Origin: Escherichia coli | GTDB lineage: Bacteria > Pseudomonadota > Gammaproteobacteria > Enterobacterales > Enterobacteriaceae | Length of the DNA: 64,000 nucleotides | NCBI RefSeq assembly: GCF_009931435.1 | Contig: NZ_CP043414.1 | Strand: one strand, 5' to 3' | Part shown: positions 691 through 53,420 of the stretch, one piece after another | How the letters are laid out: every line of letters starts with the position of its first letter | Position numbering within the stretch: position 1 is the first letter of the stretch | Translations under genes and position numbers: made by a program | The notes under the pieces: model-generated | Seen by the model: only the letters and a program-made list of their open reading frames with translations | Told to the model about the DNA's origin: nothing | The model's database searches: none

Positions 691-3581
<2,891 letters not shown>

Positions 3582-3666
3582 CGGATTTTATCCTGTTATC
3601 AGTAGGGTAGAGGTAGTTGTTATCAGTCGACGTGACGGGAAATTGCCGATGCTGAAACGGAATTAA

Positions 3667-3754
3667 GAAACCGGTTTCACAAAATCATGAATAGTTGATA
3701 CTGATTAAGCAAGAGAGTTAATTGCTCATTTTTTATATTTGTGAAACCGGTCAC
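3667..3754. promoter_or_regulatory. Divergent ascF/ascG control region with two GalR/LacI-type operator-like palindromes
   Basis: Perfect palindrome GAAACCGGTTTC at 3667-3678 and related GTGAAACCGGTCAC at 3741-3754, in the intergenic region between divergent ascF and ascG. AscG is a LacI/GalR-family repressor. Confidence 0.35.
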
Positions 3755-3837
3755 CTGAATATTTTTCCCGCTGCTTGCGCAAGGACAATCAGCCAACGGT
3801 GCAGTACACTGCGTTGATTGCGTGTAAAGGGATGAAA

Positions 3838-4851
3838 ATGATGACGACGATGCTGGAAGTGGCGAAGCGCGCCGGGGTTTCAAAAGCGACCGTTTCCCGC
3901 GTGCTTTCAGGTAATGGCTACGTCAGCCAGGAAACTAAAGATCGCGTGTTTCAGGCGGTGGAAGAGAGCGGCTACCGCCCAAATTTGCTGGCGCGCAATC
4001 TGTCAGCGAAGAGTACCCAGACGCTGGGGCTGGTAGTGACCAACACGCTTTACCACGGCATTTATTTTAGTGAATTACTGTTTCATACCGCGAGAATGGC
4101 GGAAGAGAAAGGGCGTCAGCTGCTATTGGCAGATGGCAAACATAGCGCCGAAGAAGAACGCCAGGCGATTCAGTATCTACTGGATCTGCGCTGCGACGCC
4201 ATTATGATTTACCCGCGCTTTTTAAGCGTGGATGAGATTGATGACATCATTGATGCACACAATCAGCCGATAATGGTGCTCAATCGCCGCCTGCGCAAAA
4301 ACAGTAGCCATAGCGTCTGGTGCGATCATAAACAGACCAGCTTTAACGCCGTGGCAGAGTTGATAAACGCCGGACATCAGGAGATTGCTTTCCTTACCGG
4401 TTCGATGGATTCCCCCACCAGCATTGAACGCCTTGCCGGATATAAAGACGCGCTGGCGCAGCATGGTATTGCACTCAATGAAAAACTTATCGCTAACGGT
4501 AAATGGACGCCTGCCAGCGGGGCCGAAGGGGTAGAAACGTTGCTCGAACGTGGGGCTAAATTTAGCGCGTTAGTTGCCAGTAACGACGATATGGCGATAG
4601 GTGCGATGAAAGCGTTGCATGACCGTGGTGTAGCGGTGCCGGAGCAAGTATCGGTTATTGGATTTGATGATATCGCAATTGCCCCCTACACCGTTCCGGC
4701 GCTCTCCAGCGTAAAAATTCCGGTGACTGAGATGATTCAGGAAATAATTGGGCGGCTGATATTTATGCTCGATGGTGGTGCTTACACACCGCCGAAAACC
4801 TTCAGCGGAAAACTAATCCGCCGCGACTCACTCATTGCTCTTTCGCGATAA
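3838..4851 (+). CDS. ascG: LacI/GalR-family transcriptional repressor of the asc operon
   Basis: Track ORF 3775-4851 (TTG at 3775). K-12-like N-terminus MTTMLEVAKRAGVSKATVSRVL begins at 3838/3841; AAGGG Shine-Dalgarno 7 nt upstream of 3838. HTH plus periplasmic-binding-like fold. Confidence 0.88.
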   Translation: MMTTMLEVAKRAGVSKATVSRVLSGNGYVSQETKDRVFQAVEESGYRPNLLARNLSAKSTQTLGLVVTNTLYHGIYFSELLFHTARMAEEKGRQLLLADGKHSAEEERQAIQYLLDLRCDAIMIYPRFLSVDEIDDIIDAHNQPIMVLNRRLRKNSSHSVWCDHKQTSFNAVAELINAGHQEIAFLTGSMDSPTSIERLAGYKDALAQHGIALNEKLIANGKWTPASGAEGVETLLERGAKFSALVASNDDMAIGAMKALHDRGVAVPEQVSVIGFDDIAIAPYTVPALSSVKIPVTEMIQEIIGRLIFMLDGGAYTPPKTFSGKLIRRDSLIALSR

Positions 4852-7949: not shown

Positions 7950-8040
7950 GCAGTGCCGGATGCGGCGTGAACGCCTTATCCGGCCTACACATGCGCTCCC
8001 CGTAGGTCGGATAAGACGCGCCAGCGTCGCATCCGACATT
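7950..8040. repeat. REP/BIME palindromic element between convergent hypF and norW
   Basis: gccggatgcggcgtgaacgccttatccggcctaca...gtaggtcggataagacgcgccagcgtcgcatccgac, classic REP sequence. Confidence 0.55.
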
Positions 8041-8058
8041 TTGGGCACACTAGCCTGC

Positions 8059-10814: not shown

Positions 10815-12329
10815 ATGAGTTTTTCCGTTGATGTGCTGGCGAATATCGCCATCGAATTGCAGCGTGGGATTGGTCATCAGGATCGTTTTCAGCGCCTGAT
10901 CACCACGCTGCGTCAGGTGCTGGAGTGCGATGCGTCTGCGTTGCTACGTTACGACTCGCGGCAGTTTATTCCGCTTGCCATCGACGGACTGGCAAAGGAT
11001 GTACTCGGTAGACGCTTTGCCCTGGAAGGTCATCCACGGCTGGAAGCGATTGCCCGCGCCGGGGACGTGGTGCGCTTTCCCGCAGACAGCGAATTGCCCG
11101 ATCCCTATGACGGTTTGATTCCCGGGCAGGAGAGTCTGAAGGTTCACGCCTGCGTTGGTCTACCGCTGTTTGCTGGACAAAACCTGATTGGCGCATTGAC
11201 GCTCGACGGGATGCAGCCCGATCAGTTCGATGTTTTCAGCGACGAGGAGTTACGGCTGATTGCCGCTCTGGCGGCGGGGGCGTTAAGCAATGCGCTGCTG
11301 ATTGAACAACTGGAAAGTCAGAATATGCTGCCGGGCGATGCCGCGCCATTTGAAGCGGTGAAAGAGACGCAGATGATCGGTCTGTCGCCAGGCATGACGC
11401 AATTGAAAAAAGAGATTGAGATTGTGGCGGCGTCCGATCTCAACGTCCTAATCAGTGGTGAGACGGGAACCGGTAAGGAATTGGTGGCGAAAGCGATTCA
11501 TGAAGCCTCGCCACGGGCGGTGAATCCGTTAGTCTATCTCAACTGTGCCGCACTGCCGGAAAGTGTGGCGGAAAGTGAGTTGTTCGGGCACGTGAAAGGG
11601 GCGTTTACTGGCGCTATCAGTAACCGCAGTGGAAAGTTTGAAATGGCGGATAACGGCACGCTGTTTCTGGATGAGATCGGCGAGTTGTCGTTGGCATTGC
11701 AGGCCAAGCTGCTGCGGGTGTTGCAGTATGGCGATATTCAGCGCGTTGGCGATGACCGCAGTTTGCGGGTCGATGTGCGCGTGCTGGCGGCGACTAACCG
11801 CGACTTGCGCGAAGAGGTGCTGGCAGGGCGATTTCGTGCTGACTTGTTTCATCGCCTGAGTGTGTTTCCGCTTTCGGTGCCGCCGCTGCGTGAGCGGGGT
11901 GATGACGTCATTCTGCTGGCGGGGTATTACTGCGAACAGTGCCGCCTGCGGTTGGGGCTTTCCCGCGTGGTGTTAAGTTCCGGGGCGCGGAATTTATTGC
12001 AACATTATAGTTTCCCGGGGAACGTGCGCGAACTGGAACATGCTATTCATCGGGCGGTGGTGCTGGCGAGAGCGACCCGCAGCGGCGATGAAGTGATTCT
12101 CGAGGCGCAACATTTTGCTTTTTCTGAGGTGACGTTGCCGACGGCAGAAGTGCCGATGGTGCCCGTTGTTAAGCAAAACCTGCGTGAAGCGACAGAAGCG
12201 TTCCAGCGTGAAACTATTCGCCAGGCGCTGGCACAAAATCATCACAACTGGGCTGCCAGCGCACGGATGCTGGAAACCGACGTCGCCAACCTGCATCGGC
12301 TGGCGAAACGTCTGGGGCTGAAGGATTAA
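10815..12329 (+). CDS. norR: Sigma-54-dependent NO-responsive transcriptional activator
   Basis: 504-aa ORF: GAF domain N-terminus, AAA+ sigma-54 activator core ([14 protein letters not shown]), C-terminal HTH. Confidence 0.93.
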
Positions 12330-13291
12330 ATAATCCCGGCCTGATAGAAATCCTGCAGGTTAATTGCGCCGGTAAGTTTGCCGTTTTCATCCACCACTGG
12401 TGCGGCGGTGATTTTGCGTTTCATCAGAACTTCTTTGGCGTCGATGGCGCGGCTTTGCGCCTGTAATGTGGTGCCGCCTGTCGTCATCGCTTCATTAACT
12501 GGCGTGGTGAGTGCGCCGCCGCCAACCAGCCAGCGACGTAAATCCCCGTCGGTAAAGACGCCTTGGACCTGTTGTTGAACGTCGCACACGGCTACCAGTC
12601 CCAGACCGGTGCGACTGAGTTCCAGCATCGCATCCATCACGCTGGCGGTTAACGCCACCTGCGGGATGGCGTCATCACGGCGCATCAGATGATGCACTTT
12701 GTTCAGCAAGCGAGCGCCCAGTGCCCCAGCTGGGTGGGATCGGGCAAAATCTTCTTCATTAAATCCGCGCGCCTGCATGACCGCCATCGCCAGCGCGTCG
12801 CCCATCATCAGGGTATTCACAGTGCTGGAGGTCGGTGCAAGATGCATCGGGCAGGCTTCGCGTTCTACAGAGATATCCAGCACCGCTTTCGCCGCCAGGC
12901 CCAGCGGTGATGTCGGTTTACCGGTCATCGCCAGCAGCGCGATAGATTTGTCTTCCAGACGCGGAATAATCAGATCCAGTTCCTTTGCGCCACCGGAGTA
13001 AGAGATAAACAGCATCACATCGCGGCTTTCAATCATCCCCAGATCGCCGTGCAGTGCTTCTGCCGGATGGACAAAAAAAGCAGGCGTGCCGGTACTGGCA
13101 AGCGTTGCGGCGATTTTCTTACCAATGTGGCCCGATTTGCCAATTCCCGAAACCACCACTTTGCCTTCGCAGTGCAGGATGATATTGGCGGCGCGAACAA
13201 AATCATCGCCCAGACGTTCTGGTAAACGGCTTGCTTCCTGCAACTCCAGCATTAACGTCTGACGTCCCGCGTTCAGTAGTGCTTCACTCAT
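12326..13291 (-). CDS. gutQ: D-arabinose 5-phosphate isomerase (SIS + tandem CBS domains)
   Basis: 321-aa ORF at the end of the gut operon; SIS domain ([14 protein letters not shown]) plus CBS pair. Confidence 0.9.
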
Positions 13292-14057
13292 TGCTCTCTC
13301 CGGTTATGATCACATCGATCCCTTTCTCTTCCAGCGCCTGACGAAACGCCGGATCGATACCTGCGTCGGTAATTAGCTTATCGACGCTTTCAAGACTGCA
13401 AACTACGTTGGGGCTTTTACGGCCAAACTTTGATGAGTCCGCCATCAAAATCACTTCGCGCGCGGCATTACACATCGCTTTACTGACGGTATAGACCTCG
13501 TTGAAGGTAGTTACGCCTGCATTGAGATCGATGCCATCGGTGCCCATAAACAATTTATCGAAGCTGAAATGTTCGAAGGCGTTCTCTGCCAGCTGCCCGT
13601 GAAATGAGGCCGATTTTTTACGAAACGTTCCGCCTGGCATCAGGATAGTTTGTTCGTTATCCAGTTCGGATAGCGCATTGACGATATGCAGGCTGTTGGT
13701 CATTACTGTGATGTTATTAAAGCGCGAGAGCAGGGGGACCATCTGCAAAACTGTACTGCCAGCATCAAGAATGATCGAATCGCCATCATGGATAAAACTA
13801 ACGGCAGCTTCTGCAATCAGCTCTTTCTTGTGGGTGTTGATGAGTGTTTTATGATCGATAGGCGGATCGGATTCCTCTTTATTCAACACCACTCCGCCAT
13901 AAGTACGAATGACGGTTCCTGCATGTTCCAGAATGACCAGATCTTTGCGAATGGTTGTGCCTGTGGTGTCAAAGTATTGCGCCAATTCTTCAACCGAGCA
14001 TTTACCCTGCTTTTGCAGATACTCCAGAATGGCGGCCTGACGCTGACGAGGTTTCAT
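13284..14057 (-). CDS. srlR: DeoR-family glucitol operon repressor
   Basis: 257-aa ORF with N-terminal DeoR HTH ([29 protein letters not shown]); synteny. Confidence 0.9.
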
Positions 14058-14123
14058 GGGCGTGATTACCTGATTTAGGTTTCAAAATGATAACTTCGCA
14101 AGCAAGTAACATTCACAACGAAA

Positions 14124-14483
14124 TTATCCACGTTTCAGTTTAAGCGCCAATGATAGAGCATTCTGTGATAGTGGATCATGGGGAAAGATCACATCGGGCC
14201 GTAAATCACCAGGATACATACCCGTAATTGCGGGAATTTTTTGCGGTTTAGCGAAAACGGTCAGTCCTTTCATAAACAAGGTATCGACGATGCGCTGCTG
14301 ATCGTCCAGGGCGATGGCGACCACGACCCGCGGTTTAAAGCGTCCGCTGGAACGGCCCACGCCAACCCGCCCTTGCTGGCATAGTGTGTCGAAGGCACGG
14401 TTAAAACGAGAAATTTGCCAGCCGCCTAAGGCCAGTTGCGCACACCAGGCGATAACGGCGACGGTGATGAGTGCGGATACCAT
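14124..14483 (-). CDS. srlM: Glucitol operon activator
   Basis: 119-aa ORF immediately downstream of srlD, length and position as for GutM. Confidence 0.88.
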   Translation of the reverse strand: MVSALITVAVIAWCAQLALGGWQISRFNRAFDTLCQQGRVGVGRSSGRFKPRVVVAIALDDQQRIVDTLFMKGLTVFAKPQKIPAITGMYPGDLRPDVIFPHDPLSQNALSLALKLKRG

Positions 14484-14518
14484 AACTTTTCCTTAATGTA
14501 GTGGCGGAAGTCCTGTAT

Positions 14519-14582
14519 GCCTGATGCGCGTAGCGCATCAGGCATTCTATTAGTCTCGCGGAGATCCTTAACGGATCTCCGC
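14519..14582. other. Two strong inverted repeats in the srlD-gutM spacer
   Basis: gcctgatgcgcgtagcgcatcaggc (14519-14543) and gcggagatccttaacggatctccgc (14558-14582; perfect 10-bp stem); no adjacent T-run. Confidence 0.45.
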
Positions 14583-14588
14583 TGTTGA

Positions 14589-15743
<1,155 letters not shown>

Positions 15744-15753
15744 GTTTCAGCCT

Positions 15754-17291
<1,538 letters not shown>

Positions 17292-17528
17292 TTATTGTTT
17301 TATTACCAAACGGCAACCTAATCTAATCAGATTGAAAGATTTAAAAGTGTTATTTTGATCGCAAAATGAAAGATAAATATTTTAATTTGAAAGTTTATAT
17401 AAAAGGATAGTGAGGCGGATGAGTTGAGTTATGTAAAGTCCGTATCGGGCAGTGACTACCGCTTCCTTGTGCGGGGCGTGATGCTTTACCATACTTGCCC
17501 CTGGTTGAATCTGTTAAATGGACCCCTC

Positions 17529-18614
17529 ATGTTCAAGCGTCGTTATGTAACATTGCTTCCCCTTTTTGTGTTGCTTGCCGCCTGTAGCAGCAAGCCAAAA
17601 CCTACTGAGACTGAAACGACCACCGGAACGCCGTCTGGCGGCTTCCTGCTTGAGCCGCAGCACAATGTGATGCAGATGGGCGGCGATTTCGCTAACAACC
17701 CGAATGCCCAGCAGTTCATCGACAAAATGGTGAACAAACACGGTTTCAATCGTCAGCAGTTGCAGGAAATTCTCTCCCAGGCGAAACGTCTGGATTCGGT
17801 ATTGCGGCTGATGGATAACCAGGCACCAACCACATCGGTGAAGCCGCCATCAGGTCCGAACGGCGCATGGCTGCGTTATCGCAAAAAATTTATTACGCCG
17901 GACAACGTGCAAAACGGCGTGGTTTTCTGGAATCAGTATGAAGATGCGCTGAATCGCGCATGGCAAGTGTATGGCGTACCGCCAGAAATCATCGTCGGGA
18001 TTATCGGCGTCGAAACTCGCTGGGGACGCGTGATGGGGAAAACTCGTATCCTCGATGCGCTGGCAACGTTGTCATTTAACTACCCACGCCGCGCGGAGTA
18101 TTTCTCTGGTGAGCTGGAAACCTTCTTGCTGATGGCGCGCGATGAGCAGGACGATCCGCTCAATCTGAAAGGTTCCTTTGCCGGGGCGATGGGCTACGGA
18201 CAGTTTATGCCATCGTCTTATAAACAATATGCGGTAGATTTCAGCGGCGACGGGCATATCAACCTGTGGGATCCGGTTGATGCCATCGGTAGCGTGGCGA
18301 ACTATTTCAAAGCGCACGGCTGGGTGAAAGGTGATCAGGTTGCGGTAATGGCAAACGGTCAGGCTCCAGGCTTGCCAAATGGCTTCAAAACCAAGTACAG
18401 CATTTCGCAGCTTGCCGCGGCAGGTTTAACGCCACAGCAGCCGCTGGGCAACCATCAGCAGGCCAGCTTACTGCGCCTGGATGTTGGCACCGGTTACCAG
18501 TACTGGTACGGTTTGCCGAACTTCTACACTATCACCCGTTACAATCACAGCACCCATTACGCAATGGCCGTCTGGCAGTTAGGACAAGCCGTGGCACTGG
18601 CGCGCGTGCAGTAA
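17529..18614 (+). CDS. mltB: Membrane-bound lytic murein transglycosylase B (lipoprotein)
   Basis: Track ORF 17424-18614; ATG at 17529 gives MFKRRYVTLLPLFVLLAACSSK (lipobox LAAC), 361 aa. Confidence 0.9.
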   Translation: MFKRRYVTLLPLFVLLAACSSKPKPTETETTTGTPSGGFLLEPQHNVMQMGGDFANNPNAQQFIDKMVNKHGFNRQQLQEILSQAKRLDSVLRLMDNQAPTTSVKPPSGPNGAWLRYRKKFITPDNVQNGVVFWNQYEDALNRAWQVYGVPPEIIVGIIGVETRWGRVMGKTRILDALATLSFNYPRRAEYFSGELETFLLMARDEQDDPLNLKGSFAGAMGYGQFMPSSYKQYAVDFSGDGHINLWDPVDAIGSVANYFKAHGWVKGDQVAVMANGQAPGLPNGFKTKYSISQLAAAGLTPQQPLGNHQQASLLRLDVGTGYQYWYGLPNFYTITRYNHSTHYAMAVWQLGQAVALARVQ

Positions 18615-19074: not shown

Positions 19075-19572
19075 ATGATTGACAGTGAACTGATGCAGTT
19101 AAGCGAACAGGTAGGGCAGGCGCTGAAAGCCCGTGGCGCAACCGTAACAACTGCCGAGTCTTGTACCGGCGGTTGGGTAGCGAAAGTGATTACCGATATT
19201 GCCGGTAGTTCCGCCTGGTTTGAACGCGGATTTGTCACCTACAGTAACGAAGCCAAAGCGCAGATGATCGGCGTACGCGAAGAGACGCTGGCGCAGCACG
19301 GCGCGGTGAGCGAACCCGTCGTGGTGGAAATGGCGATAGGCGCACTGAAAGCGGCTCGTGCTGATTATGCCGTGTCTATTAGTGGTATCGCCGGGCCGGA
19401 TGGCGGCAGTGAAGAGAAGCCTGTTGGCACCGTCTGGTTTGCTTTTGCCACTGCCCGTGGAGAAGGCATTACCCGGCGGGAATGCTTCAGCGGTGACCGT
19501 GATGCGGTGCGTCGTCAGGCTACTGCGTATGCATTGCAGACCTTGTGGCAACAATTTCTACAAAACACTTGA
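19075..19572 (+). CDS. pncC: NMN amidohydrolase (CinA-like C-terminal domain protein)
   Basis: ATG at 19075 (GAGG SD upstream) gives MIDSELMQLSEQVGQALKARGAT..., 165 aa; immediately upstream of recA. Confidence 0.9.
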   Translation: MIDSELMQLSEQVGQALKARGATVTTAESCTGGWVAKVITDIAGSSAWFERGFVTYSNEAKAQMIGVREETLAQHGAVSEPVVVEMAIGALKAARADYAVSISGIAGPDGGSEEKPVGTVWFAFATARGEGITRRECFSGDRDAVRRQATAYALQTLWQQFLQNT

Positions 19573-20713
<1,141 letters not shown>

Positions 20714-37267: not shown

Positions 37268-37350
37268 TTGTAGGCATGATAAGACGCGGCCGCATCGCAT
37301 CAGGCATTGTGTACAGAGTGGCGGATGAGGCAAAAGCGCCTTATCCGCCC
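37268..37350. repeat. REP-like palindromic element between ygaY and proX
   Basis: gtaggcatgataagacgcggccgcatcgcatcaggc ... gcggatgaggcaaaagcgccttatccgc. Confidence 0.45.
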
Positions 37351-53194: not shown

Positions 53195-53420
53195 AGAGCG
53201 GCTCCGCCTTATCCGGCCGACATAGATTTATTCCTGTTCACGTACAGATTGTCGGATGCGGCGTAAACGCCTTATCCGACTTGGATTCTCGTAGGCCGGA
53301 CAAGACGCGAAGCGTCGCCTCCGGCATGGTGCGCCGAATGTCGGATGCGGCGTAAACGCCTTATCCGACCTACATTTCCGTAGGCCGGACAAGACGCAAA
53401 GCGTCGCCTCCGGCATGGGT
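53195..53420. repeat. Cluster of REP/BIME elements including two tandem ~80-bp units
   Basis: gtcggatgcggcgtaaacgccttatccgac...gtaggccggacaagacgc(g/a)aagcgtcgcctccggcatgg occurs twice (about 53251-53328 and 53340-53417), preceded by a third partial copy. Confidence 0.6.

Follow-up and report, generated by a model that had tools for sequence, protein, structure and literature searches.

The question raised by the gut (sorbitol) operon of Escherichia coli at the srlD-gutM junction is what two strong hairpins are doing in the short spacer between the last structural gene and the first of the regulatory genes. The operon lies on the minus strand of the 64-kb stretch of DNA analyzed here (hereafter the window), to which all coordinates refer unless a K-12 position is given.

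Organization of the operon and of the spacer

The genes were recognized as open reading frames from the sequence, and their names were taken from the RefSeq annotation of matching E. coli DNA. In the order of transcription, the structural genes are srlA (16710-17273), srlE (15754-16713), srlB (15372-15743), and srlD (14589-15368), the last of which encodes sorbitol-6-phosphate dehydrogenase and ends with a TGA stop codon at 14591-14589. They are followed by the regulatory genes gutM (14124-14483), which encodes the activator, srlR (13284-14057), which encodes the repressor, and gutQ (12326-13291). All seven genes are on the minus strand, as is the srlD-gutM spacer, which occupies 14484-14588 and is 105 nt long.

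On the mRNA, the srlD stop codon UGA is followed by six nucleotides (UCAACA), the first hairpin (hairpin A, 14582-14558), and an A/U-rich linker of 12 nt. Then come the second hairpin (hairpin B, 14545-14517) and a further 33 nt, which include the ribosome-binding site AAGGA and lead to the AUG codon of gutM. This Shine-Dalgarno sequence was read from the sequence at 14490-14494 on the minus strand, 6 nt before the ATG at 14483-14481. Its AGGA core is kept upstream of gutM in nearly all of the 67 Enterobacteriaceae species compared.

It should be added that the region 14100-15000 of the window is only ~95-97% identical to nearly all of the 5,400 complete E. coli genomes. For this region, strain A37 from a wild rodent was closest (98.1%), and the GutM protein of the window shares 99% identity with its counterpart in Escherichia sp. 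E1V33. The source of the window seems to be a divergent Escherichia lineage; otherwise, 14100-15000 seems to be a recombination hot spot.

Structure and stability of the hairpins

An inverted-repeat search found exactly two inverted repeats in the spacer, both of them 100% complementary. Hairpin A, which is proximal to srlD and specific to this locus, has the sequence GCGGAGAUCC-GUUAA-GGAUCUCCGC and covers 25 nt (14558-14582, minus strand). Its arms, 14558-14567 and 14573-14582, form a perfect stem of 10 bp with a 5-nt loop, and the stem starts 6 nt past the srlD stop codon. Hairpin B, which is proximal to gutM, has the sequence AUGCCUGAUGCGC-UAC-GCGCAUCAGGCAU, in which arms of 13 nt (14517-14529 and 14533-14545) enclose a 3-nt loop.

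The RNA of the whole spacer folded with -47.7 kcal/mol, as compared with -21.6 ± 3.2 kcal/mol for 200 dinucleotide shuffles, none of which was as stable (z = -8.06). Folded alone, hairpin A gave -20.8 kcal/mol (z = -7.2) and hairpin B gave -24.0 kcal/mol (z = -7.3). Five inverted repeats in the 64-kb window are perfect, of the hairpin type, and with arms of 10 nt or more; two of the five are those of the srlD-gutM spacer. A third helix, in which CUUCC pairs with the gutM Shine-Dalgarno sequence, is also present in the minimum-free-energy fold; it was rejected as a chance pairing, since on its own it gave -3.6 kcal/mol with a z-score of -0.24.

The first-pass annotation of this DNA had reported two hairpins in the 105-bp spacer, and this was confirmed by both the inverted-repeat search and the shuffle-tested folding. 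They had been described as two 25-nt palindromes, one of them with a perfect stem. The palindromes are indeed there, the second being the G+C core (14519-14543) of hairpin B, but the limitation to one perfect stem does not hold, since both stems are perfect. The absence of T-runs, also pointed out in that annotation, was borne out: no T-run follows either stem, and on the mRNA strand no U-tract is found 3' of either stem, the tails being GAGACUAAUAGAAU and ACAGGACUUCC. A terminator scan of the spacer gave no terminator-like site. An Rfam scan of 12000-18000 (E ≤ 10) gave sub-threshold chance matches only; the best of these, NiCo-AnGGAG, scored 22.8 bits against a gathering threshold of 64.5 (E = 0.2), which is at chance level.

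Hairpin B as a REP element

Across the complete E. coli genomes, a 43-nt query centered on hairpin B matched at least 189,006 places. Matches were present in 5425 of the 5426 genomes, with a median of at least 40 places per genome. Many dispersed copies, an extragenic location, and a G+C-rich stem-loop of ~25-40 nt are the features of REP elements (also called PU), and hairpin B shows all of them, with its 13-bp stem and 3-nt loop. Judged by copy number and structure, hairpin B is a REP repeat, that is, a copy of a mobile element and not a bespoke structure. The first-pass view of the two hairpins was incomplete in this respect, as the REP nature of one of them had been missed. The element is a REP of the short type, present as a single copy on the minus strand, and its assignment rests on the copy number and on the allelic series described below. 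Its hairpin spans 14545-14517, its core plus foot spans 14543-14515, and the element as a whole covers 14515-14545.

The core of the window copy is 92% identical to the canonical REP allele over 25 nt, and it shares with REP elements the stem-loop, the high copy number, and the intercistronic position. It differs from them in the foot and in the stem. The GTAG foot (CTAC on the other strand) is absent: the window has GGCATAC, whereas the canonical sequence is GGCCTAC, so that CTAC has become ATAC. The mismatches or bulge of the stem are absent as well: the stem of the window is perfect, whereas the canonical allele has G.U and C.U at the two positions. The ancestral allele at this locus is GCCTGATGCGCTACGCTTATCAGGCCTAC, which has the CTAC foot and the stem mismatches and is also the short-type REP consensus. 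At the locus, GCCUGAUGCGCUACGCUUAUCAGGCCUAC is found in other strains of E. coli and in further Escherichia species. The presence of the foot in these strains and species means that the window copy descends from a true REP by point mutation.

Both the GTAG foot and the mismatches in the stem are hallmarks of REPs, and the REP transposase, TnpA-REP, depends on them for binding and cleavage (Messing et al. 2012, PMC3479197). Since the window copy has lost the very features that this transposase needs, it is probably immobile. A BIME consists of two inverted REPs and a linker (PMC3479197). The spacer of the window holds one REP only, and the other hairpin is single-copy and unrelated in sequence, so that the pair of hairpins is not a BIME.

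Other REPs are found in the window at 604-682, 7955-8041, 37270-37305, and 53251-53373, several of them as inverted pairs resembling BIMEs; they can be used as internal references for REPs of this genome. In the RefSeq record of K-12 (NC_000913.3), no repeat_region feature is present anywhere in the 45 kb from 2805000 to 2850000. The silence of this record about the srlD-gutM REP is therefore uninformative.

Allelic series of the REP

Within E. coli, the REP alleles at this locus form a stepwise series, from GCTTATCAGGCCTAC through GCTCATCAGGCCTAC and GCTCATCAGGCATAC (K-12) to GCGCATCAGGCATAC (the window and strain A37). Three substitutions distinguish the window allele from the ancestral one: a G.U pair was changed to G-C, a C.U mismatch was changed to C-G, and two A-U pairs were added at the foot of the stem. 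All three strengthen or extend the stem, at the cost of the GTAG foot and the stem mismatches. The REP hairpin of the window has a folding energy of -24.0 kcal/mol versus -13.2 kcal/mol for the canonical allele; in the REP of K-12, one stem mismatch remains. The perfect-stem allele is rare, with 22 records at least 99% identical to the 43-mer, and a 121-nt query of the spacer was matched at 99% identity or more by 5 of 5407 records.

If selection, and not quasi-palindrome template-switch mutation, drove these substitutions, the strength of the REP stem would be a means of tuning how much the structural genes of the gut operon are expressed relative to the regulatory ones. The allelic series could mean that the REP at this locus is a mobile element caught in the middle of its domestication, which is considered unlikely.

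REPs are targets of IS621. In strain SCU-301 (NZ_CP051751.1), a copy of this IS110-family element is located within the foot of the srlD-gutM REP, exactly at ATCAGGCCT^AC, with a CT core. The insertion occupies 2509-3892 of the locus piece from that strain, equivalent to approximately 14516-14517 of the window, and separates srlD from gutM by ~1.4 kb. Its junctions read ...AUCAGGCCU|... and ...|ACAGGAC. The allele of the window, GGCATAC, does not have the CT core of the IS621 target.

Conservation of hairpin A

Hairpin A is present in 5408 of the 5426 E. coli genomes, as one copy per genome and always at the end of srlD. It was found in all Escherichia species recovered and is absent outside the genus. 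Among 14 distinct sequences from Escherichia, pairing of the helix is complete (100%), and the loop varies freely. Three pairs of the helix vary, each on one side only, and every one of these changes leads to a G.U pair; in K-12, hairpin A is closed by a G.U pair. By a back-of-envelope estimate, the probability that pairing would be kept by chance in three of three stem changes is ~0.03. This pattern is no more than consistent with hairpin A being a conserved structure.

In a covariation test on 15 Escherichia spacers, no pair showed a double compensatory change, and shuffling gave a flat control. Both results are attributed to the diversity within Escherichia, which is too low for such a test. 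In the Escherichia alignment, the stem columns look no less variable than the rest of the spacer.

RNA 3' end and coverage in K-12

The spacer of K-12 is collinear with that of the window, from which it differs at 4 positions. A Term-seq 3' end in K-12 is located at 2828590 (+) of NC_000913.3, 31 nt upstream of the gutM ATG (Adams 2021, PMC7815308). It was obtained in LB at OD 0.4 with a read count of 4666, and was classed as "orphan" (PMC7815308, Supplementary files 1 and 3). The sequence printed for it terminates with ...CAUCAGGCAUACA (PMC7815308), and comparison of the sequences places the 3' end 3 nt past the REP stem. The equivalent position in the window is 14514 on the minus strand, a coordinate transferred from K-12 and not taken from RNA of this strain. 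The mapped 3' end is at the REP only; none is reported at hairpin A.

RNA coverage in K-12, taken in windows of 800 nt, drops from 585 to 197 in untreated cells; in the presence of bicyclomycin, the drop is from 309 to 199 (PMC7815308). The Rho score of the site is 1.91, slightly below the 2-fold guide value of Adams 2021, and the site is flagged as a significant Rho termination region (PMC7815308). Its intrinsic-terminator score, 1.51, is below the threshold of 3.0 (PMC7815308). Downstream of the REP, the C:G ratio is only 1.2-1.35, and no clear rut-like tract is seen there. A Northern band described as "the size of srlAEBD" has also been published (Maes et al. 2017, PMC5389530). REP-containing fragments are major substrates of poly(A)-dependent decay; REP RNAs resist decay, and poly(A) polymerase is needed for their removal (PMC5389530). 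Furthermore, Rho-dependent transcripts end at stable stem-loops, including REPs, after trimming by exonucleases (Dar & Sorek 2018, PMC6061677).

The first-pass annotation had suggested that the two hairpins act as a partial terminator or as a processing or stability element, uncoupling srlAEBD from gutM-srlR-gutQ, and had named Term-seq and Northern analysis across the junction as the checks. Both exist in the literature: Term-seq of the K-12 orthologue gave a 3' end at the REP and not uniform read-through, and an srlAEBD-sized transcript was seen by Northern analysis (Maes 2017). The 3' end and the ~3-fold drop in K-12 support the suggested uncoupling. The effect ascribed to the hairpins has to be modified in two respects: the site of the 3' end is the REP alone, and the drop is linked to Rho and not to intrinsic termination.

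Proposed role of the two hairpins

The spacer is likely to carry a composite RNA-structure element, hairpin A followed by the REP, in which Rho-dependent attenuation and an exonuclease-blocking 3' structure together lower the expression of the regulators. Transcription from the srlA promoter would partly stop beyond srlD, in a Rho-dependent manner according to the K-12 data. The released or cleaved RNA would then be trimmed back to the REP stem by 3'-to-5' exonucleases, and such trimming might be the origin of the exact 3' end. This would leave a stable srlAEBD mRNA ending ~3 nt past the REP. Hairpin A would form a second barrier if the REP were breached, and probably serves in this way as the inner barrier that shields the coding end of srlD. 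The net result would be roughly 3-fold less gutM-srlR-gutQ RNA than structural-gene RNA.

For K-12, Rho termination, trimming to the REP, and a stable srlAEBD mRNA accompanied by ~3-fold less regulator RNA are shown or strongly implied by the published data; in the strain of the window the same events would be expected. The RNA data all come from K-12, whose REP has one stem mismatch, and the stronger REP stem of the window would, if anything, block exonucleases better than that of K-12.

Such an element would explain how the transporter and the dehydrogenase are expressed more highly than the activator and the repressor, which are encoded downstream on the same transcript. It would also provide an interpretation for the "orphan" 3' end of K-12, which is present in a public table without comment, and would add one more REP to those marking the steady-state end of a Rho-terminated RNA. 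The element would be an ordinary intra-operon attenuator and stabilizer, of a known kind.

According to Higgins in 1982 and Newbury in 1987, intercistronic REPs at malE-malF and hisJ-hisQ reportedly set differential expression within their operons. In common with the srlD-gutM site, the REP there lies between a highly expressed upstream block and less expressed downstream genes, and stabilizes the upstream mRNA against 3' exonucleases. However, malE-malF and hisJ-hisQ use REP pairs, whereas srlD-gutM has one REP and a unique hairpin; in addition, the genes downstream of the latter, unlike those of the two other operons, are the operon's own activator and repressor. BIME-associated attenuation of transcription is said to have been described by Espeli et al. 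in 2001. The shared feature is a REP-containing intergenic element that lowers downstream transcription with the help of Rho, whereas the Escherichia srlD-gutM locus has a single REP.

The site also resembles Rho-dependent transcripts with 3' stem-loops (PMC6061677; Peters et al. 2012 cited there). The 3' end at the foot of a stem-loop and the sensitivity to bicyclomycin, both as found in K-12, and the lack of a U-tract are shared, and the structure is a REP, as in 24% of the cases of Dar & Sorek. The srlD-gutM site differs in being within an operon, so that termination is partial and sets the ratio of upstream to downstream genes, and in having a second, non-REP hairpin upstream of the REP.

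REPs, intercistronic REP stabilizers, and REP-capped Rho-dependent 3' ends are already established, and a literature search found no paper that treats the srlD-gutM locus in these terms. Mild novelty is confined to two points, the series of alleles in which the stem becomes perfect and the replacement of one hairpin by another, unrelated one at a fixed position; beyond good annotation, the locus is of little importance.

Comparison across Enterobacteriaceae

The spacer was recovered from 67 Enterobacteriaceae species by anchoring on GutM. It measures between 41 and 612 nt, with no conservation of sequence from genus to genus. A stable hairpin is present in all 67 spacers, but the hairpins are non-homologous: they comprise single REPs, REP pairs, REP arrays, CCCUCUCCC...GGGAGAGGG repeats, and short unique stems rich in G+C. 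Where a hairpin was scored (62 species), the first strong one mostly starts 4-9 nt past the srlD stop codon. The median folding energy per nucleotide was -0.42 for the srlD-gutM spacer versus -0.21 for the neighboring gutM-srlR spacer of the same genomes, and the median z-scores were -3.5 and -1.3, respectively; as the species are related, the tiny p-values of this comparison overstate the case.

REP-type motifs were found in roughly two-thirds of 69 spacers, an approximate figure obtained with a loose regular expression that gives a few false positives. BIME-like pairs are present at the site in Citrobacter, Klebsiella, and Enterobacter. The long spacers of Kosakonia cowanii (612 nt) and Phytobacter ursingii (550 nt) are filled with REP-type arrays, with 18 and 13 motif matches, respectively. 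In Trabulsiella, Pluralibacter, and the UBA5654 lineage, a short unique stem is followed by a U-rich tail, for example, UUUAUUAAGG. Across the family, the spacer acts as a landing pad for REPs, and it is a hairpin and not a sequence that is conserved at this position. Together with the stem-perfecting substitutions within E. coli, the unrelated hairpins at the same site in 67 species make a small example of positional conservation without conservation of sequence.

Alternative explanations

A constitutive promoter for gutM-srlR-gutQ might be located in the spacer or in the 3' end of srlD, with the hairpins in or next to the promoter or within a 5' untranslated region. This explanation is possible but doubtful, and it may coexist with the composite element. 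An RpoD-holoenzyme SELEX peak lies between srlD and gutM and is listed as constitutive for gutM-srlRQ, but no hexamers are given (Shimada 2014). The filter of Adams 2021 seems to have kept the K-12 3' end only if a transcription start site was present in the stretch from the srlD stop codon to this 3' end, or no more than 200 nt upstream of the latter. On biological grounds, furthermore, the regulators have to be expressed to some extent even while the operon is off. All Escherichia sequences retain a -10-like TAGAAT/TAAAAT between the two hairpins, and in a relaxed scan this hexamer formed part of a weak sigma-70-like candidate, TTAAGG-16-TAGAAT (8/12; 14544-14571, minus strand), which spans the loop of hairpin A and the linker between the hairpins. 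However, this is the sole match in 290 nt and has a poor -35 hexamer, while a standard promoter scan of the spacer was empty. Moreover, a start directed by this -10 would fall within the REP, ~24 nt ahead of the 3' end mapped in K-12.

REPs spread as selfish elements, and the presence of one is by itself no proof of selection for the role proposed above. A REP might simply have landed in a permissive spacer, its stem being perfected by quasi-palindrome template-switching and its effect on the RNA 3' end being a by-product. Several observations fit this: the spacer collects REPs across the family (the two-thirds of 69 spacers from the loose motif count), its content is free to vary, as is its length (41 to 612 nt), the IS621 insertion is tolerated in one strain, and the perfect-stem allele is rare, both as the 43-mer (22 records) and in the 121-nt query (5 of 5407). 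On the other hand, species without a REP keep a G+C-rich hairpin 4-9 nt past the srlD stop codon, which means that a hairpin is kept even without a REP. The neighboring gutM-srlR spacer lacks similar structure, and K-12 has a real RNA 3' end and a coverage drop. Selfish DNA accounts for the origin of the REP and the perfecting of its stem, but not for the persistence of hairpins in the REP-less species, and is unlikely to be the explanation of the site; in any case, it concerns selection and not the molecular effect.

The position of hairpin A raises a further alternative at the level of translation, namely, that a hairpin 6 nt past the stop codon hinders terminating ribosomes and lowers SrlD via stalling and trans-translation. 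Such stalling and trans-translation were reportedly described by Liang, Rudd and Deutscher in 2015 for REPs that lie no more than 15 nt from a stop codon. The 6-nt distance follows directly from the sequence, and the first strong hairpin of the 62 species is mostly 4-9 nt past the stop. The same spacing would, however, be expected of any 3' stabilizer placed just outside the coding region, and SrlD is a catabolic enzyme with no obvious reason to be throttled relative to SrlA, SrlE, and SrlB. This alternative is considered to be improbable.

It is more improbable still that one or both hairpins form a leaky intrinsic (Rho-independent) terminator. The stems are strong and rich in G+C, and the U-rich tail in the short-spacer genera (Trabulsiella, Pluralibacter, and the UBA5654 lineage) could make a weak terminator there; in Escherichia, however, there is no U-tract, the published score of 1.51 is below 3.0, and the coverage drop in K-12 is bicyclomycin-sensitive. 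A site acting at the DNA level, with the 10-bp inverted repeat as an operator for dimeric SrlR or GutM, or with the REP acting via gyrase or IHF binding, is hardly credible: despite the perfect symmetry of the repeat and reports that REPs bind gyrase, IHF, and Pol I (PMC3479197), hairpin A was rejected as an operator because no second copy of the 25-mer is found in the window even with up to three mismatches, and hence none at the srlA promoter, and because the repeat is missing from other genera in spite of their conserved GutM and SrlR; as for the REP, the locus has a single one instead of the BIME, which is the REP-pair unit of that report.

Other features of the window

A terminator-like hairpin, CGTGCATTGGCACG followed by TTTGTCTTTT, is located at 17046-17059 on the minus strand, ~215 nt into srlA. 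Its position matches that of a Term-seq 3' end of K-12, 2826058 (+), listed as "internal" to srlA (Adams 2021, Supplementary file 1), and may be a site of premature termination or attenuation early in the operon. At the end of gutM, just upstream of srlR, a promoter-like sequence, TTGGCG-16-GATAAT (9/12; 14123-14150, minus strand), is a candidate for an internal srlR promoter. Outside the operon, a perfect 10-nt inverted repeat, ATACTGTATG..CATACAGTAT, at 19572-19593 has the form of a LexA (SOS) box. This repeat sits where the gene order of K-12 would place the recA promoter.
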